Sequence record: DRR723986_5079
Direction: 5' to 3' (one strand)
Length of the DNA: 55,747 bases
Shown here piece after piece: positions 209-30,083 of the stretch (its first letter is position 1; every line of letters starts with the position of its first letter). Made by a program: the position numbers and the translations under genes. The notes below the pieces were generated by a model, which was given only the letters and a program-made list of their open reading frames with translations, did not search any database and was not told where the DNA came from.

Positions 209-2965
209 TCAGCCAGCCCGGGCGGCAACTGAATCGACGCCGTTCATCTTGGCGAGATAGCGGTGGAAGTCGACGCCGGAAAGCGGGCGCGAAAAGCTGT
301 ACCCCTGGATGAGCGAGCAGCCGAAGGAATGGATCAGCTCGCATTGTTCGTGCGTTTCGGCCCCCTCGCACACGACTTCGATATGCAGCGAGCCGGCCAT
401 TGAAATGATCGCCTGAACCAGTGCCTGGCCGTCCACATCCCGCTCAAGGCCCATGATGAAGGTCCGGTCGATCTTGAGCGTGTCGATCGGCAGGCGCTTC
501 AGGTAGCTGAGCGACGAATAGCCGGTGCCGAAATCATCCAGGGAGATCTTGATGCCGAGGTTGCTGATGGCTTCCAGAATTTCGACCGGGTTGACGCGCT
601 GGTCGTCGAACATCACGCTTTCGGTGACTTCCAGCTGCAGACGTGTCGGGTCCATGCCGGTCTCGTCGAGGATTTCTCTCAGCCGAGGCAGGAAATCCGC
701 ATCCCTGCACTGGCGCGGCGAGATGTTGACGCTGATCCCGTCGAGCTGCAGGCCGTTGCGGTTGCAGGACTGGAAGAATTCGCAGGCCTCGCGCAGCACC
801 TGTTCGCCAAGCGGTACGATGAGCCCACAGTCTTCGGCCACCTTGATGAACTCGGTCGGAGGGACGACACCCAACTTGGGATCGGTCCAGCGTGCCAGGG
901 TTTCGCAGCTCACCACGCGGTTCTTTTCATAGTCCACGATCGGCTGGAAATTCAGGTGCAGCTCACCCTTGTCGATGGCTTGCCGGAGGCAGATCTCGAT
1001 CTGGCTTGCGCGGGCGGCCTGTTCATTCATGCGCGTGGCAAAGAACCGGTAACTGGCACCGCTATCGGCCTTGGCCTGCAGCATGCTGGTGTCGGCCTGC
1101 ATCAGCAGCGCTTCCTCGTGTGTGCCGTCGTGCGGGCAGACGGTAATGCCGAGACTGCCGGCAAGCACGGCATCATTGCCGTCTTCCAGTTTGATCGGGT
1201 CGCCGATCGCCTTCAGAATGTCACGGGCGGTCTGTTCGATCTGCCAGCGGTCTTCCGGATTCGACAGGATAATGGCGAATTCGTCGCCGCCCATGCGGGC
1301 CACGGTCTGGTCCGGGCCAAGGGTCCTGGTCAGACGCGCGGCTATGGTTTCGATGACCTTGTCCCCTGCCTTGGGACCATAGGTTTCGTTGACGGTCTTG
1401 AACCGGTCGAGGTCGAGGATCATCAGCGCCGTCAGGTCGCCCATATGTTTGCCGCGCTGGATCGCCTGGCGCAAACGGTCCATGAACAGGCGCCGGTTCG
1501 GCAGACCGGTCAGAATGTCGAAATTGGCATTCTTGGTTGCCAGTTCCTCCTGGCGCTTGCGCTCGCTGATGTCTGTGATGGTGGCGTAATAGGCGCGTTC
1601 CCCGCGCCATTCGGTCAACCGAACATGCTGCTCCAGCCAGATGGTCTCGCCATCCTTGCGGATGCCCTTGACCTCATAGGTGCGCGGAGCGCCTTCGCCG
1701 TTTTCACGCATGTTGTAGTAGCTGCGCAGCCGGCTGTGCTCTTCCGGTGCATAGATCACCAGTGTGGGAGACTCGACAAGCTGCTCGGGTTCACCGGGGG
1801 TGTAACCGCACATTTTCAGCAGGGCGTTGTTCACATAAAGGATGCGATGATTGGCATGGACGAGCACGCCGTGCATCGATCCGTCGATCATGTCCTTGAA
1901 CTGGGCATCGCGGTCACGAACGGATTCAAACGCCGCCTGGAACATGGTCGCCAATTTGTTGAATTCGAAGATAAGCCCGGGCGGCGGCGGCGACACCACC
2001 CTGTCCTGCCGCAGCCCCATCGCGTAGTTCAGCAGCCTGCCCAGGCCGGCCGTGGTGATGCGATTGACCAGAAGCGCTGCACCGATTGCCAGTATCGCCG
2101 TATAAAGCAGGAACGGTGTGAACAGTTGGCTGTAGGTTTCCTCGACCTTTTGCAGGGTGTCCACGGGCTGCTTGATCACGGTCGCAAGCATGTGGCCGTC
2201 CAGACCCTGCATCAGCGGAGCAAAAACGAAAAGGTTCTCTCCGTTCAGCGCGTAATTGACGTCGTCAGGTGTAGCGTAGAGCCGTTCGGGAAGGACTTCC
2301 GTGGTCAGGTCGCCCATGCCCGCCACAACATCCTCATGGTGATAGAAGGCGATATCTTCCACCCGTAGCGCCTTGGCGAGGACACCCGGCAGGGAGAAGG
2401 AATCGGTGATAGTCGTCCCGCCATAAATCCTGCCGAGGACTCGGCCGGTATCGGGATCGAGAACCAGAACAGAGAGCGCTGCAGTGATCTGTATGGGATC
2501 GGAATCATGGTCCGCGTAAGTTACCCAGATGTCGGGCGGCATGGCGGCACGTATCTTCACCGGCAATTGGTGGCTCAGGTCGATCAGGCCGAGACTGCCG
2601 TTTACCCAGCCGTTTTCACTTGGAAGATCGATCAGGAGAATGTCCAGAACCGCGCTGGTCATGCCTTCGGAAGCGCGTTCTATTATGACCTTGGCGGTCT
2701 CCTTGTCGTAGTTCAAAAGAGCCTGCCGGATATCCGGGTGTGCTGCGACCGCGCGGATCTGCGTTTCGAGTTTGTCCAGATGCTGGGTGAAGACGAGCCT
2801 TGCGAGCGTTGCCTTGGATTTTGCGCTGCGGGCAATTTCATGTTCGGCAATCGACAGGCTGCCAAGGTACGTAATCCAGAAGAGCGCGATCGCCGTTCCC
2901 ATAAGGCCGAACGCAAACAGAGCCATGACAAGGCGGCTGAAGGGAATGGAAAAACTGGCCTTCAA
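209..2965 (-). CDS. Membrane c-di-GMP signalling protein: periplasmic sensor (LuxQ-periplasmic/dCache-like) + PAS + GGDEF + EAL
   Basis: Two TM segments flank a ~270-aa periplasmic region; PAS (RKDGETIWLEQ...ITDISERK); RMGGDEF; EAL with ETLARW, EVTES, DDFGTGYSSLSYL, KIDRTF and EGAET. Start moved from 3085 to the TTG at 2965, 7 nt after an AGGAG RBS. Confidence 0.88.
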   Translation of the reverse strand: MKASFSIPFSRLVMALFAFGLMGTAIALFWITYLGSLSIAEHEIARSAKSKATLARLVFTQHLDKLETQIRAVAAHPDIRQALLNYDKETAKVIIERASEGMTSAVLDILLIDLPSENGWVNGSLGLIDLSHQLPVKIRAAMPPDIWVTYADHDSDPIQITAALSVLVLDPDTGRVLGRIYGGTTITDSFSLPGVLAKALRVEDIAFYHHEDVVAGMGDLTTEVLPERLYATPDDVNYALNGENLFVFAPLMQGLDGHMLATVIKQPVDTLQKVEETYSQLFTPFLLYTAILAIGAALLVNRITTAGLGRLLNYAMGLRQDRVVSPPPPGLIFEFNKLATMFQAAFESVRDRDAQFKDMIDGSMHGVLVHANHRILYVNNALLKMCGYTPGEPEQLVESPTLVIYAPEEHSRLRSYYNMRENGEGAPRTYEVKGIRKDGETIWLEQHVRLTEWRGERAYYATITDISERKRQEELATKNANFDILTGLPNRRLFMDRLRQAIQRGKHMGDLTALMILDLDRFKTVNETYGPKAGDKVIETIAARLTRTLGPDQTVARMGGDEFAIILSNPEDRWQIEQTARDILKAIGDPIKLEDGNDAVLAGSLGITVCPHDGTHEEALLMQADTSMLQAKADSGASYRFFATRMNEQAARASQIEICLRQAIDKGELHLNFQPIVDYEKNRVVSCETLARWTDPKLGVVPPTEFIKVAEDCGLIVPLGEQVLREACEFFQSCNRNGLQLDGISVNISPRQCRDADFLPRLREILDETGMDPTRLQLEVTESVMFDDQRVNPVEILEAISNLGIKISLDDFGTGYSSLSYLKRLPIDTLKIDRTFIMGLERDVDGQALVQAIISMAGSLHIEVVCEGAETHEQCELIHSFGCSLIQGYSFSRPLSGVDFHRYLAKMNGVDSVAARAG

Positions 2966-3466
2966 CGAAGCGCTCCTGAACCGGCGGGCATCATCTGACG
3001 GGTAAATCGAACATGACGGGAAGCAAGGCGGCGCGGGGTCCTTCTCGGTTGGAACAACAGGTTGTTGCTGGTCTTGCAAGTACAAGGCACCCGGCGGCGG
3101 GTGTGGACAGCTTCGGGAAAAGACAGGTTGTGACGAACCGATGCGTCCATAAGCACAGTATCATGAAACCTGCCTCCTGTTTTGCAATTGCAAGAAAAAA
3201 CACTTACAGACTCAAACGTAACTGCTCGAGGTTTACCTTTGGTGAATTGGAATGGTGAAGATATTGCCTTTTTATTGTCAATTTAACTTGCTGTTCATCA
3301 ATAAAGTTGGGATTGAGTATAGTAATATTTGACAGGAGCCATTTCTATTGAGTGCTGCTGTCCCCTTGCATGATCGGACGTTTGCCTCCCCCGGCGAAAC
3401 TGGTATACCCCCAATCGTGAAGTGAATTGGGGTCGATTGGCCTATTGCGGAAGACGGAGCCACTTG

Positions 3467-4955: not shown

Positions 4956-4992
4956 GTCCCGCTGCTTCCAGGAGGCAGCGGGACTTGTTTTT
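4956..4992 (+). terminator. Rho-independent terminator after dapB-gpmA
   Basis: GTCCCGCTGC...GCAGCGGGAC stem followed by TTGTTTTT. Confidence 0.8.
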
Positions 4993-5126: not shown

Positions 5127-5144
5127 CTCTCCCATTTGAGGGAG
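5127..5144. promoter_or_regulatory. 18-bp palindromic operator, copy 1 (CTCTCCCATTTGAGGGAG)
   Basis: Matches three other copies at 8794, 12941 and 15225; TAGGCT -10-like hexamer at 5166 after a 21-bp gap. Confidence 0.75.
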
Positions 5145-5204
5145 GGCCGATCTGCAACGCCTCTATAGGCTTCCAGCCGTCGACCACGGTTGGAGCATTT
5201 TTAG

Positions 5205-6128
5205 ATGGCCGAATGCACGAAAGTTTCTTCCCGCTTGCAGAAGCTGGTGCGCAGATCAGGAAAATCCGGACGTTCGCTATTTCAGGCAACTGCAGTTTTT
5301 CTGCTCGGCGCGGTTTCGGCGCAGGCCCAGACAGACCTGACAGCTGAAGAACAGGCCAGGCTGGCCGCAGCCGACAGCGGCCAGGCACCGACTGCCACCG
5401 CGATCGAACTTCCCTTCGAGGAGCCGTTTGACGGCAAGGATCTGGCCGGGCACTGGCAGCTCCTGAATGCTGACAAGGACTCCTTCGTTGTAGAAAACGG
5501 CATCCTGCTTGCGCTCACGAGTGGCGGCAAGAACAGTCTGCGAAATGCGGATACGAACAACATCTTCGAGCTGCAAGGCGTGCCGCCTGAGGGAGACTTC
5601 GATCTTGCTATCAAGGGCAAGCTCGATCCGAAAACCGGTTACGACGAAGTCTGGCTGGGACTTCGGGAAAGTCCGGACAATTTCATAGCAGCCCATCTTT
5701 ATGTGCTCACCAAGGGGTGCGGCCCTGCACTGTTCCTGCGGACTGTCGCCAATCAGCCGGTAATGCCGGAAGGAGAGCCGGTTTTGACCGCCGCCAACCA
5801 CAGCCTGTTTGACGGTCCCATCATCAAGTCCGTTTGCGACAAGGCCGGCCGGCCTCTCGGGGATCAGATCCTGTCGAACCTGTTTGCAGAAGGTTTTGAG
5901 CTGACCCTTTCCAGAAGAGGGTTGCGCTACCGGACCTCCCTGACATTGACCGTTCCGGACAGAGGGGCGCAAAAGCCCGCCGGTCTCGAGACCGTTCACA
6001 CCAACTGGATTGCCCGCATGGCGCCTTTCGGCAAACCGGTTTTCCTGCTTGGCCAGGGCAGCCGCGCCGGCAGCGGTGAAACGCTGGCCGAGTTCGACCA
6101 CTTCAGCATCCGCCGTCCGCAACAATGA
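5205..6128 (+). CDS. Exported hypothetical protein, single beta-sandwich (ConA/lectin-like?) domain paralogous to the C-terminus of the next gene
   Basis: GGAG RBS; signal peptide ending AVSAQAQ; FEEPFDG...W...GDFDL...TKGCG...VCDKAGR...EFDHFSI; ATGA overlap with the next gene. Confidence 0.75.
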   Translation: MAECTKVSSRLQKLVRRSGKSGRSLFQATAVFLLGAVSAQAQTDLTAEEQARLAAADSGQAPTATAIELPFEEPFDGKDLAGHWQLLNADKDSFVVENGILLALTSGGKNSLRNADTNNIFELQGVPPEGDFDLAIKGKLDPKTGYDEVWLGLRESPDNFIAAHLYVLTKGCGPALFLRTVANQPVMPEGEPVLTAANHSLFDGPIIKSVCDKAGRPLGDQILSNLFAEGFELTLSRRGLRYRTSLTLTVPDRGAQKPAGLETVHTNWIARMAPFGKPVFLLGQGSRAGSGETLAEFDHFSIRRPQQ

Positions 6129-8128
6129 GCCCGGAGTTTCCCATGTCTGCTCTTCCCTCTCGGGCACGCGTACTGCGGCTCGTGGTTCCTTTCTCGCTCG
6201 CCCTTTGTGCCGCTTTACCTTCTCATGCTCAGCAAGGTGATGTCGCCGCCGCAGAGAACCTCGTGCGGCTGTTTTATGCCGAACATTCGAAGCGGTTCAA
6301 CGACGGCGATACGCCGCTCCTGAACGACGCTCCGGCCGCAAAGGAGTTCCTCGTCGACGGCCTCGTGCAAGGGGAGCTTCAGGGGATTTTGCAATTCGAT
6401 CCGGTCTATGATGCACAGGACGCGAGCATTTCCGATCTCAGTATCCGGCCCGATCCGGACGCACCCCTCTTGCAGGGTGCTGCCCGGATCCAGGTGACTT
6501 TTACCAACTTCGGAATGCCGCTCCGGCACATCTACACGCTGATAACCGTGCCGGACGGTTCCTGGCAGATCAACGACATCTATTCCGAAACAAATGACTG
6601 GTCGCTGTCCGGTCTCCTGCAGTCCGCCGGTGTCGACATCAGAACGGATCCAGGTTCCGAGATCACGCTCAAGGGCGGTTCAGCGGCCGGGTCCACTGTT
6701 GGATCGGGGCAGACACAGGCTGCAAACGGCGGAGACGCGGTAATACCCGGTATGGAGGAAGGAGACCTTCCCGGAAACGGCCTGTCCTCTGAAGGGAGCG
6801 ACCTTCTGTTCGTTCTGGACGGTTCAGGCTCCATGTGGGGTCAGGTCGACGGTGTTGCCAAGATCACCACCGCGAAACAGGCGCTGACAGGTCTTATCGG
6901 TGACCTGCCGGCTCAGACCAATGTCGGCCTCATGGCCTACGGACACCGCCGGGAAGGGGATTGCGGAGACACCGAGATCCTGTATCCGGTTTCCAACTTC
7001 GATACCGAACGTCTGAAGCCGGTTATCGACGCGATTACGCCTCGTGGAAAAACCCCCATCGCAGCCGCCCTGCAACAGGCGGCTTCCGCCATGCCCGCCT
7101 CCAATCGGCCGGCAAACGTGCTTCTGATTTCAGACGGGCTGGAAACCTGCGGCGGTGACCCATGCGCCGCGGCCAAGGCATTGGCCGAGCGGGGTATCAA
7201 CACCCGCGTCCATGTGGTCGGGTTTGACCTGACGCAGGAGGAGAACCAGGCCCTTCAGTGCATCGCCGAAAATGGCGGCGGCAACTATTACGCCGCCAAC
7301 AATGCCGAAAGCTTCACCGAGGCCGTCAAGCAGGCTGTCGCGGACGCAGGCAAAGCAGCGGAACCTCCCGCACCGGCGCCGGAAGCTGAAGAGGTCGTTC
7401 CGGCCAGCACCCTTGTGTTTGAAGAAACGTTTGACGGCCCGGAGCTGGCAGCCAGCTGGCAGACACTGAATGGAACCGACAGGCTGACCAGGTTTACCGG
7501 AAGTGGCACCCTGTTTGTCTCCGCACTGGGGGGCGACACGATCTACGACAACAAGAACGCGCTGAACCGCCTCGTTCTTGACGAGCCACTGCCTGACGGC
7601 GATTTCGACCTGAGTCTCAAGTTCAAGCTGCATGAACAAAGCGGCCATGAAAGCGTATCGTTGTCGCTGCTGGAGGATACGAACAACCAGATCGGCGCAA
7701 TGGCCTGGATCTGGACGAAAGGCTGCGGTTCTTATCTGAACCTGTCCTTGACCCGCCTCTCCGGAGATCCCGAAGGCAAACCTGAAGTATCGCGTTTCGA
7801 TGTCAATCTGTTCAGCAAGCAGATCGTCAAGACAGTGTGCGACAAGGCGGGCAGAGCTTATGGCAACAAGGTTCTGGAATCGCTTTCGACCGATGGTGCA
7901 CTGCTGCGTCTGAAACGGCGAGGACGTGCGCTTTCCGCTGCCATCGAACTTGAACTGCCCGCTGCTGACGGTCAGGAGGGAGGTCCCTACGTTCTTGAGA
8001 CCGATCCGGTTACAGTACTGCGCCTTGCCGGCAAGCCGAGCGTGCTCGCCGGTCAGTGGAACAAGGCAAAGTCTCAAGAGAGCCATTTCGAGTTCGACAG
8101 GTTTGCAATCGAGCTGGTTTCGCAATGA
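6125..8128 (+). CDS. Exported multidomain protein: DUF3828-like + von Willebrand factor A + beta-sandwich domain
   Basis: Signal peptide (LPSHAQ); FDPVYDAQD and WQINDIY (DUF3828/YbjP-like); MIDAS DGSGS, GKTPI, LISDGLETCGGDPC, HVVGF; C-terminal repeat of the domain in 5205..6128. Confidence 0.85.
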   Translation: MSPEFPMSALPSRARVLRLVVPFSLALCAALPSHAQQGDVAAAENLVRLFYAEHSKRFNDGDTPLLNDAPAAKEFLVDGLVQGELQGILQFDPVYDAQDASISDLSIRPDPDAPLLQGAARIQVTFTNFGMPLRHIYTLITVPDGSWQINDIYSETNDWSLSGLLQSAGVDIRTDPGSEITLKGGSAAGSTVGSGQTQAANGGDAVIPGMEEGDLPGNGLSSEGSDLLFVLDGSGSMWGQVDGVAKITTAKQALTGLIGDLPAQTNVGLMAYGHRREGDCGDTEILYPVSNFDTERLKPVIDAITPRGKTPIAAALQQAASAMPASNRPANVLLISDGLETCGGDPCAAAKALAERGINTRVHVVGFDLTQEENQALQCIAENGGGNYYAANNAESFTEAVKQAVADAGKAAEPPAPAPEAEEVVPASTLVFEETFDGPELAASWQTLNGTDRLTRFTGSGTLFVSALGGDTIYDNKNALNRLVLDEPLPDGDFDLSLKFKLHEQSGHESVSLSLLEDTNNQIGAMAWIWTKGCGSYLNLSLTRLSGDPEGKPEVSRFDVNLFSKQIVKTVCDKAGRAYGNKVLESLSTDGALLRLKRRGRALSAAIELELPAADGQEGGPYVLETDPVTVLRLAGKPSVLAGQWNKAKSQESHFEFDRFAIELVSQ

Positions 8129-8763
8129 GGATTCGTCCTCGCCGTGCTTGTCTGGCCTTCGTAATCCCCTGGGTCCTGTCGGAAGCTGTCTTCGCGCAGG
8201 GTCCAGGCGTCCAGGCCCCAGGTGTCGAAGACCTCGAATGTGCGGCGGGGTATGGCTGCCAAGGCGTTTCATCTTCGCAATGCGACGTCCTGGCGATGCT
8301 GGGCTTGATGACGACGGGAGAGGCCCGGGACCTGTTCGCCCAGGCATATCCCGCACGGTTTACGGAGGTGGCAAGAAACGCAGACCTGCCACCGACCGAA
8401 TGCCTGCAGGCTGCCGGTTCCGGTATAGGCACCGGCGCATCGCCGAATGGCAGCAGTGCACAAGCCTTGCCCGACTTCGCAAGTCTCGACGGGTTTTCAG
8501 AGGCACCCTGCCCGGGCAAAGTGTCCGTCGATCCGATCTTCGTGCAGGGGCAACCGGACATCCGGGTGCTCGCCTGTTTCAAGGGAGCGGACAATCGCTA
8601 CAGCGAATGCGGCAAGGCAGCGGCCCGTGCCTATTGTCTGAAATTCGGTCAACCGGACGTTGCCTGTTTCGGCGACATCAAGCTCGTCGGCAAGGCCGCC
8701 ACTGTCGACGCCTATTGCGAAGCTGGCGGGTGTCCCGCTTTTGGTTTCATTGTCTGCAAATAA
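8125..8763 (+). CDS. Exported cysteine-rich hypothetical protein
   Basis: ATGA overlap with the VWA gene stop; signal-like N-terminus ending AVFAQ; 12 Cys in the mature part, C-terminal CGKAAARAYC...CEAGGCPAFGFIVCK. Confidence 0.72.
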   Translation: MRIRPRRACLAFVIPWVLSEAVFAQGPGVQAPGVEDLECAAGYGCQGVSSSQCDVLAMLGLMTTGEARDLFAQAYPARFTEVARNADLPPTECLQAAGSGIGTGASPNGSSAQALPDFASLDGFSEAPCPGKVSVDPIFVQGQPDIRVLACFKGADNRYSECGKAAARAYCLKFGQPDVACFGDIKLVGKAATVDAYCEAGGCPAFGFIVCK

Positions 8764-8793
8764 GCGTCATCCGGTGCCGGAACCGCATCGATG

Positions 8794-8811
8794 CTCACCC
8801 AAATGGGAGAG
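8794..8811. promoter_or_regulatory. 18-bp palindromic operator, copy 2 (CTCACCCAAATGGGAGAG)
   Basis: Same motif; CAGTCT hexamer at 8833 after a 21-bp gap; 70 bp upstream of ATG 8881. Confidence 0.75.
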
Positions 8812-8880
8812 GCTTCAGCCGGATCGAAACGTCAGTCTTGCGTCATCGACATGTCTCGCCAACAAGACCGGAGACTGAAA

Positions 8881-9288
8881 ATGCGGAAGATTTGGATGAT
8901 ACTTTTTCTGGCATTGGGGACGAGTTTCCTGCTGCCAACCTTTTCGGCGCAGGCCAAGACGATCTGCACGATCCAGGCGGAGAGCGCTTTCAGCAAGGGT
9001 CACAAGACCCGGGCCGGTGCCGAGGCAAGAGCCTGGGTAAACTGGCAAGGCAAGATGAGGAACAGCCATGGACGCCGGTTTGCCGTTTCCATGGCGCGGG
9101 TGACAAAAGGCTATCCCAAGTTCGATGGCACCCGGTTTAACCACAGGGTGGTGGTTCGCGCCCAGGGTTGCTACGTCAAAGGCGTTTCCTGCCTCACCGG
9201 CACGGGTATCACCCCTTCCTGCGAGTGCCAGAGCGACCGTCGCGCCGCCTTGAAGCAGGGATGTTCCGTCTACGCTGCTGGCAGGTGA
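8881..9288 (+). CDS. Small exported basic Cys-rich hypothetical protein
   Basis: GGAG RBS; Sec signal MRKIWMILFLALGTSFLLPTFSAQA; 6 Cys and many Lys/Arg in the mature part. Confidence 0.78.
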   Translation: MRKIWMILFLALGTSFLLPTFSAQAKTICTIQAESAFSKGHKTRAGAEARAWVNWQGKMRNSHGRRFAVSMARVTKGYPKFDGTRFNHRVVVRAQGCYVKGVSCLTGTGITPSCECQSDRRAALKQGCSVYAAGR

Positions 9289-9331
9289 CAGGCGGTAGGA
9301 ATACTTCCCGAATGGAATGCGTGCGGACGGT

Positions 9332-11137
9332 CTATTTCAACCAGCCGACAGGCCCGGCCATCAGCCGGGCCACAAGCTCCGACTGACTGTGCACGCCGAT
9401 CTTCTGGAAACTCTTTTTAAGATGCCCGCGGGCCGTGCTGACCAGAATTCCCTGGTTGTCTGCAATCTGGTCCAGCGATCGTCCTTCGGCGATCTCGAGG
9501 GCAATCTCCGCTTCTTTGCCGGTCAGGCCATAGGCCAGTTCGATCAGGGTCTTTCGGGTTTCGGAGGTGTCTTCGCCGGTCTGCACCCTCAACAACAACA
9601 AGCTGGCAGGCCCGTGCCTTTGAAGGCTGGTCTGTTTGAGGGCGGCAGGAAAAAACTGAAAGCCGACAGGCTTGCCCTCATGGACAATCAGTCTTTCCCC
9701 GTTCTGGCGAGAAATGACTGCCGCTTCGTTTTCTGCCAGCAGCGACTTTACCCGTGCCTTCGCGGTTTCTTGAATTTGACCAGCGTCGTCCTGCGGCAAC
9801 AGGCCCGAGAGCGATGTTTCGAAGGCGCCGTTGCAATGCAGGAGGTCGTTTTGCCTGTCCAGCAGGGCAACACCGATCTGCAGCCGCTCGATCACGCTTT
9901 CCAGAAGAACGCCGAGCGTCGCGCTCATCATGACCTGCTTGTTCAGGTTGAACGCCCGTTCCCAGTGCGGCATCAGCCGGCTGATGCGCTCGTGCAGTTC
10001 CTCCTCGTTGACGTTCCCGGAGAGTTCTGCCTCATGGATCATCCGGTAGATGATTTCCGTCCATCGGCTGTCGTCGTCGATGGCGTTGTAACAGAGCTCG
10101 ACAAGTTCATCCGGCTCCAGCTGCCGTGCGCCGGTTTCGCTGATCCGGTTGAGGATGTCCGAGGCAAGCTCTTCCACACCGACTTCCCTGATATCGGCCT
10201 CAGGGCGTCTGTTTTTCTGGACCCAGTCTAGGATCCGTCGGCTGATCGAGAATTTGTCCTCTTCCAGGAACAGCGCCGACCGGGCTCCGTCGACACGTTC
10301 GGAGGCAACGTCCTCAATGCCAATCCGCGACAGAAAGCGCTGGATGGGCGGCAGGAAACCGCCGTCGCGGAGCATTGCATCCTCGCCGCCGAAGACAACA
10401 AGGCACCGCGTGCCCGGTTTCATCTGAGCGTCACGCGGCCACGACCACGCACTGAGCATGCCTTCGAAAATCTGCTTCCAATATGCGGGTGTCGGTGTCG
10501 GCCAGCCATGCGGGTCTTCCAGGACCTGCTGAATGACGCGGTGATCCGTACTCATGACATCGGCAAGGTGCCTGCGATCCTTCAGGTGCGCGCCAAGGAA
10601 GGAATAGAGATGGTGCAGGGTCTGTTCGTCGGGCGTATCCGCCCCTTTCAGGCGGATTCGAACCTCGGCAAAAGTCTTGCCGAACAGGGCCAGCGTCTTC
10701 TGGTTGGGCGGCGGCGAGATGAACACGATGTGCCGGGCAAGGTCCGGCCAGGACTTCATGACTTCCAGGGTCAGCAGGGCGGTGATATTGGGAACGACGA
10801 TCAACCGGTCCTGCCAGGGCGTGTCCTCAAAGCTTCGCTGCAGCAGGTGCCGCATGTCTTCTACAGCAGATTTCCAGCCGTCTCGCGGATCCAGGTGCCC
10901 GGCAATCGAGGTCTTGTCGAAACTCTTGCCGTGTCCCCGGATATCGCCGGAGTGGACGTCCCAACCGGAGGCGCGGAACCCGGCTGCGAGTGGCTGCAGC
11001 ATTCCTGAATGCGTTGGTTGGCTATGGCCCAGGAAAACGGTTCTCTTTCCCGAATAGAGACGGCGCGTCATGTTGACGGGCCAATGACGGTAATAAAGCG
11101 AAGGCCCGTCAGGTCTCGGTAGGTATTTTGCTTCCAT
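9332..11137 (-). CDS. LuxR-family regulator with an N-terminal degenerate alpha/beta-hydrolase (lysophospholipase-like) domain and a PAS-like middle region
   Basis: N-terminal YYRHWP...GHSQPTHSG...DIRGHGKS...DGWKSAVEDM hydrolase scaffold; C-terminal YGLTGKEAEIALEIAEGRSLDQIA...STARGHLKKSFQKIGVHSQSELV LuxR HTH; start taken at MEAKYL. Confidence 0.85.
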   Translation of the reverse strand: MEAKYLPRPDGPSLYYRHWPVNMTRRLYSGKRTVFLGHSQPTHSGMLQPLAAGFRASGWDVHSGDIRGHGKSFDKTSIAGHLDPRDGWKSAVEDMRHLLQRSFEDTPWQDRLIVVPNITALLTLEVMKSWPDLARHIVFISPPPNQKTLALFGKTFAEVRIRLKGADTPDEQTLHHLYSFLGAHLKDRRHLADVMSTDHRVIQQVLEDPHGWPTPTPAYWKQIFEGMLSAWSWPRDAQMKPGTRCLVVFGGEDAMLRDGGFLPPIQRFLSRIGIEDVASERVDGARSALFLEEDKFSISRRILDWVQKNRRPEADIREVGVEELASDILNRISETGARQLEPDELVELCYNAIDDDSRWTEIIYRMIHEAELSGNVNEEELHERISRLMPHWERAFNLNKQVMMSATLGVLLESVIERLQIGVALLDRQNDLLHCNGAFETSLSGLLPQDDAGQIQETAKARVKSLLAENEAAVISRQNGERLIVHEGKPVGFQFFPAALKQTSLQRHGPASLLLLRVQTGEDTSETRKTLIELAYGLTGKEAEIALEIAEGRSLDQIADNQGILVSTARGHLKKSFQKIGVHSQSELVARLMAGPVGWLK

Positions 11138-11289
11138 GCGCAGATCTCGTCTTAGAACCACATCTGCCCAATGTGTCAAAATTCCCCTTGCAGACGCCCG
11201 CCGCGAGACTGCAGCAGAAAGCCGCCGTTGCAAATCTATGAAAATCCATAGGGTCTGGCTGCAAAAGCGGCGTTTCATGCCGAGTGCCC

Positions 11290-12309
11290 TTATTCGACGG
11301 TATTCTTGAGAGAGAACTTTGCAGCCTCGAACTCGGTCAGCAGGTCGGCGAGATGTGCATCGACCCGGTCCGGATGCGCGTTGGCACCGACAAGCTTGTC
11401 CTGCGCCAGAAAGAACAGGACATCGTCGTCAATCACGAAGCCGACGGTGTGATACCGCTGAAGCAGATCGAGCAGGGTGGCCTGAGTAGCAGGCGTCAGG
11501 ATTCTGAGAACGGCAAGGTCCGTATCCGCTCCGGCACCGTTTGAACAGGAAACATGGAATGCTTCGTTGAAGGCGATGGACTCCGTCTTGATGTCCCGAT
11601 CCAGAGGGCCCTTGTGGAAGAGGTTCTCCGGTCGCACTGCGGCCCGGACGCCTGTCTTGCGGCCAAGTTTGTAAGCGCCCAGGAGGGAGTAGAACACGCC
11701 GAAGCCCCCTCGGCCGCCACGGGCGTCACGCCTCAGGGCAGGATTCGCCGCAAGGCCGGCTTCCATTTCCATGGCACCGATTGCGACCCAGAACGGCAAT
11801 CCGTCGTTGCTGCTTGTACCCCAGAATTCGCCATCGAATTGGGCACCGACAAAGGATCCGACCTGAAGCCTGGTCAGTTCCGGGACGCGGTCTTCCACGG
11901 CAAGCGCCCTTTCGGATTTGACCAGGTGCGTTCGGCGATCCGCGCCGTCCGATGTCATGACGGTGCCGAATTCGCGCACGCGCTCCATGAGCTTGCCGGT
12001 GTAGCTCCAGCCTTTCCTGCGTGCGAGTTCGACCCGGCGCTTCAGCTGTCGGCCGTCCCTGTTTTCAAGCTCCCCCGCCAGAAACATGAGCGCGAACATC
12101 ACGGTCGTGACCGCAACAGGCACAAACGGAAAGCCGTCCGTCCAGAAGCCCTGCACCATGGTCCACAAAAGGGCAAGGATCGCCCCTATCGGCAGCATGC
12201 GTCGGACCGGAGCCGGCAGAACAACACCGGATCGGATGTCGGAGACATCGGGGGTCTCCACGGAGATTTCACCCTTGATCGGGTCCCAGTGCGTGACGCG
12301 CCCACTCAT
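11290..12309 (-). CDS. Membrane protein (2 TM), DUF3137-like, LemA-associated
   Basis: Two hydrophobic helices; DIKTESIAFNEAFHV...LRILTPA motif typical of DUF3137-type LemA partners; ATGA-coupled to the lemA-family gene. Confidence 0.65.
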   Translation of the reverse strand: MSGRVTHWDPIKGEISVETPDVSDIRSGVVLPAPVRRMLPIGAILALLWTMVQGFWTDGFPFVPVAVTTVMFALMFLAGELENRDGRQLKRRVELARRKGWSYTGKLMERVREFGTVMTSDGADRRTHLVKSERALAVEDRVPELTRLQVGSFVGAQFDGEFWGTSSNDGLPFWVAIGAMEMEAGLAANPALRRDARGGRGGFGVFYSLLGAYKLGRKTGVRAAVRPENLFHKGPLDRDIKTESIAFNEAFHVSCSNGAGADTDLAVLRILTPATQATLLDLLQRYHTVGFVIDDDVLFFLAQDKLVGANAHPDRVDAHLADLLTEFEAAKFSLKNTVE

Positions 12310-12881
12310 GACGGCGCTCTTGTCAGGTCGATTGGCGGTACGGCTTCAGCGGATTTCAACTGGTCTGCATTGAGTGTGAAAAACGCTGCCCGCTCGAAGC
12401 CGAGGAGCGAGCCGACCCAACACGAAGGGATGGCATCCAGCAGCGTGTTGTAGCGATCCACATTGCCGTTATAGAGCCGGCGCGCGGCACTGATCTGATC
12501 CTCGGTTTCCTCCAGCTGTTTTTGCAGTTGAAGGATGTTTTCCGTCGAAGTCACATCAGGATGATGTTCCGTGTAGCCAAGGAAGGTGCTCAGCCCCGCG
12601 GTCAGGTCGCCTTCGGCCCGTTCGATGTCTTCCAGGCTGCCCTGCCGGACCGCAATCGCCTTCTCCCGCACGTCCAGAAGACGGTCGAAGACATGGTTTT
12701 CCTGACGGATGGCGGAGCGGACCGTATTCACCAGCCCGGGAATAAGGTCATGCCGCCGCTTGAGTTGAACCTGAATGCCCGAACGCCCGTTCGCAACGGC
12801 ATTTCTGGCCGCTGCCAGGCGGTTTTGCAGGTAGACGAACCCGCCAAGGCTCATGATCAGTAGGATGAAAAGCGTCGTCAT
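12306..12881 (-). CDS. lemA: LemA family protein
   Basis: N-terminal TM; IQVQLKRRHDLIPGLV and LEETEDQISAARRLYNGNVDRYN LemA signatures; GGAG RBS. Confidence 0.9.
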   Translation of the reverse strand: MTTLFILLIMSLGGFVYLQNRLAAARNAVANGRSGIQVQLKRRHDLIPGLVNTVRSAIRQENHVFDRLLDVREKAIAVRQGSLEDIERAEGDLTAGLSTFLGYTEHHPDVTSTENILQLQKQLEETEDQISAARRLYNGNVDRYNTLLDAIPSCWVGSLLGFERAAFFTLNADQLKSAEAVPPIDLTRAPS

Positions 12882-12940
12882 GCATGTCTCCGGAAAACCC
12901 ATGTCCGGAAGACAACAGAACAGTTGGGGTGACACGCGCC

Positions 12941-12958
12941 CTCTCCCATTTAAGGGAG
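12941..12958. promoter_or_regulatory. 18-bp palindromic operator, copy 3 (CTCTCCCATTTAAGGGAG on +)
   Basis: 17/18 identical to copy 1; 60 bp upstream of the lemA start on the minus strand. Confidence 0.75.
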
Positions 12959-13002
12959 CTTGAAAACGTGAAAGGCACAGGACACCTTTTCCACATTCCT
13001 GA

Positions 13003-13761
13003 CTAAGGGGAAATCAGCCCGTTGAGCAGCGCGATGGCAATTGCCTGTTCGCGGGTCGCGGCGCGAAGTTTTGTGCGGGCGTTCTTGAGATGAAGTTCGA
13101 CGGTAACCGGCCGGAGGCCGAGCTTGTCTGCAATCTGCTTGCTGCGCAGGCCTTGCGCGACCCAAAGGAGGCATTCCTTTTCCCTCGGGCTCAGCGCGAT
13201 GTCCCTGTGCTCGTTTTCCAGCGCGGCCTGCAGGCGCTGGTGCGCAAAGAAGGCTGTCAGGCGGAGCAGGTCGGCATGTTCTGAAAATATCTTCTCGATT
13301 TCGTGGCGCGGCAGGCTTGAACCGAGGTTCCAGCCACCAGCTCCACCAGGCCCGGCTTGCCGCACGATACAGGACATGCCGGCACGCATGCCGGTTTCTC
13401 CAGCTTCCTGAATGAGTTGGCGCTGGGCGGCGCACAGATACGGGTAGTCCGATAGATAGTCGATACCCGTCCCCATAGGAGTAGTCGAGGTGCAGCAGTA
13501 GGCAAAGAAGGGGTCGATCCGCTCATAGGCGGCGGCGCGGTAATGAGAGGTCCAGCTTTCCGGAAAGGTGGTGAACATCGACAGACCGGCCATCGTGCGG
13601 TCGATGTAAATGAGCTTGTCGAAGCCAAAGGATTCGAAGAATTGCGCACTGGCTGTCCAGGCACTGTTGGAAGAAATTCCTTCAGGCAATTTCTCGATCA
13701 AACTGGGCGGCACTGCGTCTGTCCAAGCATAAACTATGGTTTTCCATATATTGGAGATCAT
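13003..13761 (-). CDS. LuxR solo: autoinducer-binding domain + HTH
   Basis: FPESWTSHY...YERIDPF...GMRAG autoinducer domain; LSPREKECLLWVAQGLRSKQIA...TVELHLKNARTKL HTH; no luxI in the window; exact start uncertain. Confidence 0.88.
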   Translation of the reverse strand: MISNIWKTIVYAWTDAVPPSLIEKLPEGISSNSAWTASAQFFESFGFDKLIYIDRTMAGLSMFTTFPESWTSHYRAAAYERIDPFFAYCCTSTTPMGTGIDYLSDYPYLCAAQRQLIQEAGETGMRAGMSCIVRQAGPGGAGGWNLGSSLPRHEIEKIFSEHADLLRLTAFFAHQRLQAALENEHRDIALSPREKECLLWVAQGLRSKQIADKLGLRPVTVELHLKNARTKLRAATREQAIAIALLNGLISP

Positions 13762-13861
13762 AGGGTGCCGGGTTACATCGGACAACGGTTAGAGTTCACG
13801 GGGATTTTTACCTGACCAGGGCCCGTCGGACGGAAAACGTTTTCGAGGGGCTGCTTCTGGC

Positions 13862-15187
13862 GTGACAGGCACGGGATCACAGACAATCGTCCTTGGAACG
13901 CTTCTGTTGGGGCCATTGGTTTACGCGTTCTGGCGCAGCCGCAAGGGAACGCGTGCAGACTACATTTTCAACTCGGGCCGAACGGGTTTACTGGCCACGG
14001 TCGCCGGTATCATCTGCGGTAACATCGGCATCGGTACATTCGTTGCACTGGTGCTGTTTTCCGCGGCAAGCCCGGTCATCGGCCTGTCACTCGCGCTGGC
14101 TTACGGCACCGGGCTGCTGATGTGTGCCCTTGTCGCTCCGGGTGTGCACAGACTGTCGCAAAAATACGGGGTAAGAGGACTGATCGACCTCATCGTGGTC
14201 ACCCACAAGGTACGGCATCCGATCCTGATATGGGGGCCGGTTGCCTTTGTCTTTCTTCTGCGGGCCTCGGTACAATTGATTGCCCTGGCCGTTATCCTGA
14301 CGGCTGTCCTTCCAATCCCGCCGCTTGCGGCAGTCGTGCTCGCAACATTCTTTGCAGGGGCCTATACGGCGATTGGCGGCTACAGAGTGGCAACGGAAAC
14401 CGACATTCCGCAGGCCGTGGTCATTCTCGTCGGCATTGCGATCCTCGGGATGTGGAACATGGAAGCGCCTTCGCGGGAGCTCGTGTTTTTCGACCTTGGT
14501 CCCTACCGCTTTCCGATCCTGATCGGCATCTGGCTGTTCATACCGGCAAGCGCTGTTCTGGCAGTCGACAACTGGCAGCGGATGGCGACCGCACGCGAGC
14601 CGTCGGTTGCCCGGAGCGCATTCCTGCTCGGAGCCCCGATATGCCTTGCGGGATACCTCATTATCGTCTGGCTCGGGCTGCACAGCATGCCTGGCGGGGA
14701 CGTGATGCAGATCCTGCACACGTCGGTGCCGCAGACCTGGACATGGCTTGTCGACCTGATGCTCATCGCCGTGGTGATGTCGACGATGGACACGTTCGTG
14801 ATGCCGCTGATGGCCGGTCTGGAACGGACAGAACTGTCGCTGGGGAGATTGCAGCTTATCGTTGCCGCGCTGTTCACGTTGCTCGGTCTTTCAGCGGCCT
14901 TGTTCGCGGATGTCCTGAACTCGATCATTTCCGCCTTCAGTTCGCTGGCGGTGTTCTTGCCGGTTGTCTGGGCATCGGTTCGCGGCCGGCGTGTGAGCGC
15001 GCCGGCGGCAATCGTGTCCCTGAACGTCGGGATCGCGGTCACCGTGCTGCTGACAACAGTGGACCTGAATTCCGCGGCGTTGGCTGGCTGTCTTCTGTCC
15101 TGGCTGCTGTATGAGACAGTGTCACGCCTTGCCCCGGGCCAGTCCCTGGCGCTTCGCAAGGTTGCTGAAAGAGACGCGGGAGCTTGA
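13862..15187 (+). CDS. Sodium:solute symporter-like membrane transporter
   Basis: About 12-13 hydrophobic segments; NIGIGTFV, YTAIGGYRVATETDIPQ, WQRMATA and AVVMSTMDT resemble SSS-family motifs. Confidence 0.75.
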   Translation: MTGTGSQTIVLGTLLLGPLVYAFWRSRKGTRADYIFNSGRTGLLATVAGIICGNIGIGTFVALVLFSAASPVIGLSLALAYGTGLLMCALVAPGVHRLSQKYGVRGLIDLIVVTHKVRHPILIWGPVAFVFLLRASVQLIALAVILTAVLPIPPLAAVVLATFFAGAYTAIGGYRVATETDIPQAVVILVGIAILGMWNMEAPSRELVFFDLGPYRFPILIGIWLFIPASAVLAVDNWQRMATAREPSVARSAFLLGAPICLAGYLIIVWLGLHSMPGGDVMQILHTSVPQTWTWLVDLMLIAVVMSTMDTFVMPLMAGLERTELSLGRLQLIVAALFTLLGLSAALFADVLNSIISAFSSLAVFLPVVWASVRGRRVSAPAAIVSLNVGIAVTVLLTTVDLNSAALAGCLLSWLLYETVSRLAPGQSLALRKVAERDAGA

Positions 15188-15224
15188 CGCTTCGCCGCCT
15201 AAGTAACTGCGATTTCCGTTCAAG

Positions 15225-15242
15225 CTCTCCCATATGGGACAT
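15225..15242. promoter_or_regulatory. 18-bp palindromic operator, copy 4 (CTCTCCCATATGGGACAT)
   Basis: Same motif; TACTCC hexamer at 15264 after a 21-bp gap; 60 bp upstream of ATG 15302. Confidence 0.72.
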
Positions 15243-15301
15243 TTGCAGTCTGCAAGGATCGCCTACTCCTTCCCGAGTTTCGGCTCAAAGGAGACAATCT
15301 G

Positions 15302-15769
15302 ATGAAATACGCCTACGCTCTTGCAGTTGGCCTTCTGCTGGGTTTGCCGGCAGAATTTGCGACAGCACAGTCGCGCTCCAATGAGGGAGTGACAGGTCAA
15401 CCACAAGCCTGTCCGTTCAACCATCCTGTTGGTTGCTTCATCAAGACCGGTTCCAAGGGGCCGGTGAAGTCCGTCTACTTCTTCAACGACTACAAGCAAA
15501 ACCGGTGCGGGGTTCATACGCAGGTTTGCCCGGAGGGGCGCAAGTGCTTCACGCGCACGGAGAAACTGAGCCTGAACACCGCGACGGGAGAATTCTATTC
15601 AAGCCGGATCAATGGAGCGGTCACCGTGACGAACAGTTACGGGTTCTCCACCAAGACGATTGGGTCCGGTTATCCCGCCTTCATGCGGGCGAAGGTCAAA
15701 TATGTCGGGAAAAACGGCAAGGCGAGAACCAGCACATTGTCCTTCAAGGCGTCGTCTGAAGGGTGCTGA
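15302..15769 (+). CDS. Small exported basic Cys-containing hypothetical protein
   Basis: AAGGAG RBS; Sec signal MKYAYALAVGLLLGLPAEFATA; 6 Cys. Confidence 0.78.
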   Translation: MKYAYALAVGLLLGLPAEFATAQSRSNEGVTGQPQACPFNHPVGCFIKTGSKGPVKSVYFFNDYKQNRCGVHTQVCPEGRKCFTRTEKLSLNTATGEFYSSRINGAVTVTNSYGFSTKTIGSGYPAFMRAKVKYVGKNGKARTSTLSFKASSEGC

Positions 15770-28856: not shown

Positions 28857-29000
28857 TCGCGTCCCTGTAAAAACTGAAAAACGCTTCACGGCCTCCGCCC
28901 ATCCCGGAGGCCGTGCGCGTTTGTGCCGGGTGCAAAATGAACAGCAATCGCGCCAAGGCAATACTGTGCCCCCATGCGAAGAGATGTCATACTCCTGCCC

Positions 29001-30083
29001 ATGATGCGGCGTGGAGTTCCAAAACAAGACATCTTCTTTGTCACCGCCAAAGATGGTGCGCGCATTGCCTGCGCCTCGTCAGGGCGTGGGCCGACCATCG
29101 TTCGAGCCGCGCACTGGCTGACCCATATCTCCCGCGATCTTGACAGTCCCGTCTGGCAACACTGGCTTGCCGAGTTGACTGGCTTCGGACGTCTCGTGCG
29201 ATACGACCTTCGCGGCTGTGGTCTTTCTTCGCGAAACATCTCCGAGATCAGCTTCGAGGCCTGGCTGTCGGACCTGGAAGCCGTGACCGAAGCAATCGAC
29301 GAACCCTTTACCCTGCTCGGCATGTCTCAAGGTGCCGCGCTTTCCATCGCTTACGCGCTTCGCCATCCGGACAAGGTGGAACGACTGGTCTTGATCGGCG
29401 GTTACGCGCGCGGACTCTTGGCTCGCGACACCAGCGACAGGGCGAGACTGGAAGCGGCGACGCTGACCAACCTGATGCGGCTGGGGTGGGGCAGGGACGA
29501 TACTGCTTTCAATCAGGTTTTTACGCATCTCTTCATTCCGGACGGAACGCTTGCGCAGCACAAATGGTGGCGGTCTCTTGAGCAAGACACCGCGTCGGCA
29601 GACATTGCAGCCCGCACCATGGAAACGCTGCATCGTATCGACGTCCTGAATCTGGCTGCGCAATTGAAAGTGCCGACGCTGGTGCTGCACGCAAATGGCG
29701 ACGCACGCGTTCCCTTCGCTCAGGGACGCGAGCTTGCCATGACCATCCCGGATGCCAAATTCGTGCCCCTGGACAGCAACAATCACGTATTGCTGGACAC
29801 GGAACCTGCGTGGAACGTTCTTCTTTCTTCCTTGCAGGATTTCCTCGGAACCGGCGCCGACCTCGCGGTATCCGACACGGACTTCGGTCTCACCACCGCG
29901 GAGGAACAGGTGCTGACTTTGGTGGCGAAAGGGCTGAGCAATTCGGAAATTGCGGAGCTTCTGGACAAGAGCGAAAAGACCGTGAGAAATCAGGTCTCCT
30001 CGCTCTTCGACAAGGTCGGGGTGCACACCCGTTCCGAGTTGATCGTGCGCGTTCTGTCGGCACAGACGGGACAAACACCCTAG
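29001..30083 (+). CDS. Alpha/beta-hydrolase-LuxR HTH fusion regulator (catalytic motifs intact)
   Basis: AHWLTH, RYDLRGCGLS, GMSQG, GDARVP, SNNH; C-terminal LTTAEEQVL...GLSNSEIA...KTVRNQVS. Confidence 0.88.
   Translation: MMRRGVPKQDIFFVTAKDGARIACASSGRGPTIVRAAHWLTHISRDLDSPVWQHWLAELTGFGRLVRYDLRGCGLSSRNISEISFEAWLSDLEAVTEAIDEPFTLLGMSQGAALSIAYALRHPDKVERLVLIGGYARGLLARDTSDRARLEAATLTNLMRLGWGRDDTAFNQVFTHLFIPDGTLAQHKWWRSLEQDTASADIAARTMETLHRIDVLNLAAQLKVPTLVLHANGDARVPFAQGRELAMTIPDAKFVPLDSNNHVLLDTEPAWNVLLSSLQDFLGTGADLAVSDTDFGLTTAEEQVLTLVAKGLSNSEIAELLDKSEKTVRNQVSSLFDKVGVHTRSELIVRVLSAQTGQTP

Follow-up and report, generated by a model that had tools for sequence, protein, structure and literature searches.

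A 55,747-nt stretch of DNA from sequence record DRR723986_5079 (the window), whose closest named homologues come from Roseibium and Stappia and which probably belongs to that family, carries four 18-bp palindromes near genes for exported and membrane proteins. This raises the question of which regulator reads these boxes and what it controls. Two regulators with a LuxR-type helix-turn-helix (HTH) are encoded in the same cassette: HYD, a fusion of a pseudo-hydrolase, a PAS-like segment and an HTH, and a LuxR solo. An earlier note on this DNA had located the palindromes and preferred the pseudo-hydrolase LuxR as activator. We found all four where that note had placed them, and its choice of activator was backed by co-occurrence and by co-variation of the recognition helix with the box. 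The best explanation of the whole, with a probability of roughly 75%, is that the palindromes are operators of HYD, a cassette-encoded one-component activator. That HYD binds the boxes and activates from them appears highly probable from sequence comparison. The boxes are:

5127..5144, + strand: HYD box 1; -10-like TAGGCT at 5166-5171; 17 of 18 letters the same in the Stappia locus L026
8794..8811, + strand: HYD box 2; -10-like CAGTCT at 8833-8838
12941..12958, - strand: HYD box 3, facing lemA; no clear -10 hexamer; 18 of 18 letters the same in L026
15225..15242, + strand: HYD box 4; -10-like TACTCC at 15264-15269

With up to three mismatches allowed, the box consensus matched the window four times (0.30 +/- 0.52 expected), and none of 100 shuffles reached four; this test is circular because the consensus was derived from those very matches. 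To escape the circularity, a held-out matrix was trained on 26 sites from other genomes only. It placed the four window boxes on top, at 27.5, 27.3, 23.0 and 21.4 bits; the runner-up scored 6.7. In 300 Markov simulations of the window, the number of sites reaching 15 bits never exceeded two. Between the window and L026, identical letters amounted to 69/72 in the boxes, 46/84 in the spacers and 31/60 upstream. The earlier note had considered that the motif might be a genome-wide repeat; a strict degenerate pattern searched in five genomes gave 12 matches, all within the HYD cassette, and a control gave none. The nearest genome used (G001, 6.7 Mb, 97% identical over 20 kb) was examined by pattern search only. 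A loose pattern matched it 22 times, compared with 8 for a reversed control; the three matches with at most two mismatches were all inside the cassette, and among the 15 matches scored by the matrix, the 11 outside the cassette reached 13.5 bits at most. These data indicate that the motif is a local, conserved operator.

The same numbers bear on a different explanation, in which the motif is a repetitive extragenic palindrome (REP)-like repeat, an RNA hairpin or a terminator after stop codons. Three of the four window copies do lie 30-45 nt past a co-directional stop codon, the look-alike L128:1636, presumably a REP, has a GC-rich centre and forms part of a longer inverted repeat, and the loose matches in G001 exceed their control. 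However, strict matches are confined to the cassette, sites outside it in G001 score low, and position 4/15 is unpaired in 17 of 30 sites, with no compensatory changes at conserved pairs. In addition, a hairpin would have a loop of 2 nt closed by the invariant A-T pair, homologous boxes also occur between divergent genes, and no box was called in a terminator scan (0/4). Without many dispersed copies, a stem kept by compensatory changes or a U-tract, the REP or terminator reading was rejected; its probability is close to nil.

Look-alike palindromes with non-AT centres were also seen outside cassettes, at L128:1636, at G134:C6:326 and C14:78027, and at G133:C9:64033. The longer inverted repeat at L128:1636, probably a repeat element of intergenic DNA, adds spurious matches to loose searches.

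The two candidate readers are:

9332..11137, - strand: HYD, a 601-amino-acid (aa) pseudo-hydrolase-PAS-LuxR fusion, predicted reader of the four boxes
13003..13713, - strand: LuxR solo with Autoind_bind and GerE domains; start uncertain

The HYD gene start in the earlier note was corrected to 11137, and homologue lengths agree with the resulting 601 aa. We compiled 24 distinct HYD loci from genomes and metagenomes; near-identical loci (L120, L122, L127, L123, L125, L132, L121 and L133) and short or partial ones were omitted. Symporter-like genes were present in 21 of these loci, VWA genes in 20, lemA in 18, DUF3137 genes in 17 and the solo in 3. All 11 loci of the close clade (HYD identity at least 58%) had boxes, and 8 of them lacked the solo. 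A whole-genome search for the solo in five solo-lacking genomes with boxes gave no match in two and only distant ones in three (at most 36% identity over long matches). Nine solo loci beside a VWA gene lacked HYD; their best box score was 10.0 bits, compared with 16.5-30.1 for real sites, and eight of them bear a different palindrome. Apart from one weak partial match, HYD was not found in the genomes of these nine loci.

Box sequence also follows the recognition helix of HYD. Half-site position 4 was T or C in 74 of 82 half-sites accompanying an ILVSTxRGHLKK-type helix, A in 36 of 36 accompanying RTHL(K/R)R helices (box type GTCACTCA-WW-TGAGTGAC), and C in 11 of 12 accompanying RSH(L/V)K helices.

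Binding of the four boxes by the solo, or by a regulator encoded elsewhere, must be weighed against these distributions. Three of the 24 loci do have the solo within the cassette, and VWA, LemA and DUF3137 genes are found next to relatives of the solo as well. However, boxes persist without the solo, HYD-less solo loci have another palindrome in place of the box, and box sequence varies with the HYD helix. The solo was rejected as reader of the four boxes, since the box follows both the presence and the helix of HYD. For a reader encoded elsewhere, sites outside the cassette would be expected too, and the strict scan returned none. Either version is very unlikely, and on this comparison it seems largely settled that the box tracks HYD and not the solo.

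Promoter geometry points to activation. The earlier note had put the boxes 60-70 bp before a start codon, with -10-like hexamers 21 nt after the box; the measured distances were 60, 69, 59 and 59 nt for boxes 1-4, and TAGGCT, CAGTCT and TACTCC were confirmed for boxes 1, 2 and 4. Across 67 sites, TA occurred at offset 22 past the box in 24 of 87 gene-facing directions and in 2 of 47 directions facing no start. The counts for gene-facing directions were 6 of 87 at offset 23 and at most 4 at every other offset; when the window and three close kin were left out, TA at 22 or 23 was found in 22 of 70. The peak at offset 22 places the box centre near -42.5, which is the class II position of lux boxes, so that the class II spacing claimed earlier was borne out. 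A lux-type class II box overlaps the -35 region, according to the available part of PMC10491235. A sigma-70 promoter scan of the window had no box promoter among its matches (2 found, 2.6 expected); this blank fits activator-dependent promoters, yet adds no support in itself.

HYD could instead be a repressor that sits over the -35 region and is released by a ligand, given that the box covers about -51 to -34 and could overlap polymerase. Repressor sites usually vary in position, whereas the fixed 21-22 nt to the -10 and the lack of a recognisable -35 after HYD boxes fit activator-dependent promoters. We consider repression improbable.

The module drawn in the earlier note has to be extended, as it left a symporter gene unnamed and overlooked two copies of a second palindrome (11236, 13734):

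11236..11251, - strand: solo box B, followed by TTTGCA-17-CAGTCT; faces HYD; conserved at L026:11982
13734..13749, + strand: solo box A, followed by TTGGAG-17-TACATC; faces the symporter gene
13862..15187, + strand: sodium:solute symporter-like (SSF) gene, divergent; Pfam SSF E 1e-4, partial, just under cut-off

This second palindrome, with consensus CTATGGA-WW-TCCATAG, lies between relatives of the solo and their divergent genes. A matrix built from nine non-window loci, with L093 (best 15.7 bits) excluded from training, scored the window copies at 22.2 (11236) and 20.1 bits (13734) and the next site at 8.8; two such sites arose in 0 of 100 simulations. TTG stands one base downstream in 11 of 13 sites, the remaining two having TTTGCA, and in the window the spacing is 17 nt to TACATC (13734) and to CAGTCT (11236). 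Both boxes are conserved in L026, and G133 keeps the equivalent of the first (13734). A promoter-like site of the solo gene adjoins solo box A on the opposite strand (13785-13757), although it comes from the scan with 2 matches for 2.6 expected and is weak alone. G001 has two further loose solo-box matches, one of them in a prophage-like region. Taken together, the solo probably drives both HYD and the symporter, a link drawn from the operators.

The solo matched Autoind_bind (E 7e-19) and GerE (E 2e-16) in Pfam. Alignment with relatives makes 13713 or 13701 its likely start; 13761 is disfavoured because the longer frame would overlap the solo's own box. No luxI was found among the 19 proteins scanned around the cassette, and no search of the genome for luxI was made. 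Five of six acyl-homoserine lactone (AHL)-pocket residues, which we take to be numbered W57, Y61, D70, P71, W85 and G113, are present; at the W85 position, Thr is found both in the window protein and in its relatives, so the solo ligand may be no standard AHL. The solo also retains Trp and Tyr at what, by the numbering we presume, are the positions that change in the PipR/OryR/NesR group.

Three further observations concern solo relatives and solo-type palindromes. A near-perfect solo-type palindrome at L190:1501-1516 (G001:C1:875802) lies in a prophage-like region, between a repressor-like and an integrase-like gene, and may be chance or a phage operator. The solo-VWA intergenic regions of L028, L029 and L087-L092 belong to a separate cassette family, in which the solo is divergent from the VWA gene, the 16-bp palindrome directly precedes a TTG -35 element and the Trp85 position is Thr. 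At L093:5291-10486, a solo relative and a second HTH gene accompany VWA, lemA and DUF3137 without HYD, which is the same output module with a different regulator.

No solo box was found in the DUF3137-HYD gaps of the nine other close-clade loci. All nine contain a direct repeat, RTTCA-N6-RTTCR (11-bp period), 35-75 nt from the gap end; it is absent from the solo-box gaps (window and L026, 0/2), and the background is 0.0024 per gap. The repeat was first noticed in these same nine gaps, and its occurrence in 4 of 16 more distant HYD upstream regions is the independent part of the evidence. The gaps are:

L079:945-1103: direct-repeat gap
L103:8802-8920: direct-repeat gap
L105:8776-8893: direct-repeat gap
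L107:8784-8973: direct-repeat gap
L110:10975-11290: direct-repeat gap
L112:17289-17575: direct-repeat gap
L113:16679-16845: direct-repeat gap
L124:9832-10000: direct-repeat gap
L126:9884-10000: direct-repeat gap

The repeat fits the Pseudomonas aeruginosa PhoP consensus GTTCAG-N5-RTTCAG given in the accessible part of PMC3156716, and its other strand fits the CenR site TGA-N8-TGA given in that of PMC9275681, so that both regulators are candidate binders only. A FeuP preprint gave no binding motif. Unlike in these relatives, the repeat is missing from the window's own HYD promoter. The simplest reading is that the input to the HYD promoter has been replaced by a solo box in this lineage.

Several observations count against HYD as activator at the four boxes, or against the links drawn around it. 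Box 3 has TCTGTT at the hexamer position and no clear -10. TA at 22 or 23 is present in only 30 of 87 gene-facing directions, and directions were assigned from our own gene calls. Four RNA-library contigs span 28-30 of 30 bins and reveal neither starts nor levels. There was no convincing box in L128 or in the short loci L134 and L137, and the boxes of G290 are mixed in type. The co-variation of helix and operator corresponds to some two independent changes in the phylogeny, in which the middle group does not form one resolved clade; with so few changes, direct binding by HYD is supported, not proven. The symporter count is inflated, as a search with the symporter brought in 4 of the 24 loci (17/20 among the others). 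The link from the solo to HYD is seen in only two related lineages, and G133 has a solo yet no solo box before HYD (score -0.3).

What HYD might sense is suggested by its architecture. Pfam detected only Hydrolase_4 and GerE (E 2.6e-6) and no autoinducer-binding domain (PF03472); sequence matches in the PDB were VraR, NarL and GerE, with a weak match to 6ugl (E 0.01). A structure model (predicted local distance difference test, pLDDT, 86.7) shows a lipase-fold domain at residues 1-309, joined by a long helix to a PAS-like segment that precedes the HTH. The model places the first domain in the alpha/beta-hydrolase fold with a cap. Its best structural match is the bacterial lipase 6khk (Z 29.5, rmsd 3.3, 297 aligned), followed by the monoglyceride lipases 7ozm (Z 27.6) and 6ax1 (Z 27.1), and Foldseek agrees. 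The PAS label rests on model topology and on weak PAS matches in three of four relatives of the C-terminal half, which resembles a large family of 360-410-aa PAS + GerE proteins.

The nucleophile elbow of HYD reads VPNIT, and all 45 aligned members have Asn (N117) in place of Ser. All 45 also retain the catalytic Asp (D253), and the His position is occupied by Ser (34), Thr (8), Gln (2) or Gly (1). Stand-alone relatives of the hydrolase domain keep GHSMG and RH in six of six shown. HYD as an active serine hydrolase was rejected, as both the GxSxG nucleophile and the catalytic His are absent. The lining of the former active site (H38, N117, I118, D253, R286) is invariant in the 45 HYD sequences. 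Mean identity to the window protein is 55% in the dead domain, 37% in the PAS-like part and 58% in the HTH; the higher value for the dead domain than for the PAS-like part indicates that the dead domain is under selection. HYD proteins are rare: about 17 full-length clusters were found among 1.84 billion representatives, and the gene occurred in 5 of the 132 genomes from the G001 family, in 5 of the 151 from the G133 family and in 1 of 401 in a class-wide sample, namely G001.

In several distant HYD loci the symporter-like gene directly follows HYD in the same orientation, and distances for the two proteins correlate (rho 0.70, 0/500 permutations, 18 loci), which implies that the cassette is co-inherited and says nothing about the ligand. 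A lipase-fold domain without Ser-Asp-His hydrolysis would most likely offer a binding pocket to a small molecule of acyl or glyceride type. That HYD binds such a molecule, imported by the co-inherited symporter, is a tentative proposal that may well be wrong.

A competing explanation keeps HYD as reader of the boxes and has the dead-lipase domain sense a protein partner or the membrane, with the symporter as co-sensor. Transporter-like co-sensors exist, such as the SLC5 domain of CbrA; here, the Pfam match of the symporter is partial and below cut-off, and the gene follows HYD closely. However, the invariant lining of the former active site suits a kept pocket, and no hydrophobic N-terminal segment was found in HYD by a hydrophobicity heuristic. 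Partner or membrane sensing is rather unlikely, though it deserves attention.

The remaining features of the cassette are:

4956..4984, + strand: terminator-like hairpin after gpmA at the cassette's left edge; 13 pairs and a T run; presumed function
5205..6128, + strand: gene A, 307 aa, signal-peptide-like N-terminus, concanavalin-A (ConA)-like beta-sandwich
6125..8128, + strand: gene B, N-terminal alpha/beta domain, VWA and ConA-like domain; start 6125 or 6143
8125..8763, + strand: gene C, 212 aa, exported-type, 13 Cys
8881..9288, + strand: gene D, 135 aa, exported-type, 6 Cys, no family
11290..12309, - strand: DUF3137-like membrane protein; Pfam E 3e-4, below cut-off; start overlaps the LemA stop
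12306..12881, - strand: LemA-family membrane protein, 191 aa; Pfam LemA E 7e-38
15302..15769, + strand: gene E, 155 aa, exported-type, 6 Cys, few relatives

The products of genes A, B, C, D and E have signal-peptide-like N-termini, as judged by a hydrophobicity heuristic only, and the comparative data supported the earlier claim of a local regulon of exported proteins. The coordinates of gene C, third in the first operon, were corrected to 8125-8763. No family was found for A, C, D or E in Pfam and NCBIfam. Gene A fell into GH43_C2-like Atlas clusters at 0.96 and is a paralogue of the C-terminal domain of B (37% identical to residues 430-667), whereas gene C had only unnamed Atlas clusters, at 0.86. 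Gene B carries a Pfam VWA domain with an intact DxSxS..T..D metal-site motif; in its model (pLDDT 83.6) the VWA domain had a structural match at Z 23.4, and the last domain matched a GH43 C-terminal sandwich at Z 19.5. The label DUF3828-VWA given to it earlier held for VWA; the DUF3828 part was weak, as the window protein had no match at E <= 0.1 and PF12883 matched 2 of 39 homologues (best E 0.049). A firm DUF3828 label for the N-terminus of B was rejected on these matches. Gene E has seven close homologues, with distant copies in two other HYD loci.

Cargo varies by locus and includes large VWA proteins and SH3, transglutaminase-like, TMEM43-like and DUF3592 proteins; among 44 cargo proteins of related loci, 29 were without a Pfam match. 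Very large exported-type cargo (1200-1850 aa), mostly with no Pfam domain but VWA, was noticed in distant HYD cassettes:

L128:16406-20698: very large cargo
L129:2871-7553: very large cargo
L083:14703-19691: very large cargo
L142:14161-19695: very large cargo
L143:13105-16716: very large cargo

At L026:10848-10931, lemA is a 27-codon remnant although the equivalent of box 3 is fully conserved; LemA thus seems dispensable there, and the box may serve DUF3137. About 39 extra bases are present in gene C of G001 and of all four RNA-library contigs (window 8430-8438), so the window allele carries a short in-frame deletion. G+C is flat across the cassette (0.57-0.61), giving no compositional sign of recent transfer. 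Two other genes in the window were noted. A PAS-GGDEF-EAL protein with a weak LuxQ-periplasmic match (E 2e-5) is encoded at 209-3085, two genes from the cassette, and was not seen in other HYD loci. A second fusion of a hydrolase and a LuxR-type HTH, at 28974-30083 (369 aa), has a GMSQG elbow that is intact by eye and is unrelated to the cassette.

The mechanism that we propose is a cascade, in which a first signal would act on the solo, the solo on HYD and the symporter, and HYD with a second signal on the exported proteins. The solo, on its 16-bp palindrome, would turn on the symporter and HYD genes and probably represses its own. HYD may bind each box as a dimer, as the palindrome and the LuxR-type HTH suggest; from a position near -42.5, over the -35 region, it would recruit sigma-70 RNA polymerase to the weak promoters of four units: A-B-C, D, lemA-DUF3137 and E. 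In the nine other close relatives, a PhoP/CenR-type direct repeat stands at the HYD promoter, and the upstream input has apparently been exchanged.

According to the accessible part of a 2026 preprint (10.64898/2026.10.21.759321), LemA proteins restructure membranes and bring about vesicle formation; that part mentions neither DUF3137 nor LuxR. A LemA protein is listed as changed in a LuxR-solo mutant in the portion available of PMC10413115. With the vesicle preprint in mind, envelope or surface remodelling would be the likeliest output, and VWA domains, lectin-like domains and LemA would fit such a programme. As a purpose, surface remodelling or vesicle cargo nevertheless remains doubtful. 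The host or competitor interaction suggested in the earlier note is conjectural. More speculative still is a joint reading in which HYD is the founding example of a bacterial receptor class built on a dead monoglyceride lipase (MGL): a lipid-like cue would enter via a dedicated symporter and switch on a LemA-driven vesicle or surface-coat programme with VWA, lectin-like and disulphide-rich cargo, in a portable cassette whose inputs differ: most carriers would use a two-component site for envelope stress, and the window a solo that responds to a non-standard ligand. We consider this combination a long shot.

Parts of this arrangement resemble known systems. LuxR/lux box and TraR/tra box share with it a LuxR-type HTH, an 18-bp palindrome over the -35 region and local targets; however, HYD lacks an autoinducer-binding domain, its box bears no sequence relationship to the lux box, and the cassette showed no LuxI gene. 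The four boxes would be operators of a LuxR-type HTH, not lux boxes of an AHL receptor. In the PipR/OryR/NesR solos the regulator likewise stands beside a signal-importing transporter, as the accessible part of PMC10134790 describes, whose main text does not contain the words hydrolase, symporter or Willebrand. Unlike in that group, the transporter here is SSF-like and not of ABC or peptide type, no pip gene is present and the predicted box reader is a hydrolase fusion. Residues 1-309 of HYD share the fold of monoglyceride lipases and Hydrolase_4 lysophospholipases, but HYD has Asn for Ser, no His, and fused PAS-like and HTH parts. The alpha/beta-hydrolase fold has been reused for sensing in GID1, KAI2/D14 and RsbQ, and GID1 also lacks the catalytic His; those sensors act through partner proteins, whereas in HYD the sensor is fused to a DNA-binding domain. 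VqmA-like PAS-LuxR regulators resemble the C-terminal half of HYD, in which the pseudo-hydrolase replaces their usual N-terminal domain.

No description of the regulator, box or cassette was found in the literature searched, subscription papers and supplements (with possible predicted-regulon tables) aside. The earlier term new system is a little strong, as the logic is that of a conventional one-component activator, if one whose sensor domain is unusual. The pseudo-enzyme as sensor is a design known from plant hormone receptors; no such sensor in a bacterial transcription factor was described in the literature searched.

Our analysis provides a testable wiring diagram for an unstudied cassette, with two regulators, two distinct operators and six promoters. 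The cassette shows an operator and a recognition helix changing together, as well as the apparent replacement of a promoter's upstream input. The ligand of HYD could be a new cue for marine alphaproteobacteria and, as the regulon is small and local, its induction would show what the LemA-DUF3137-VWA module does.

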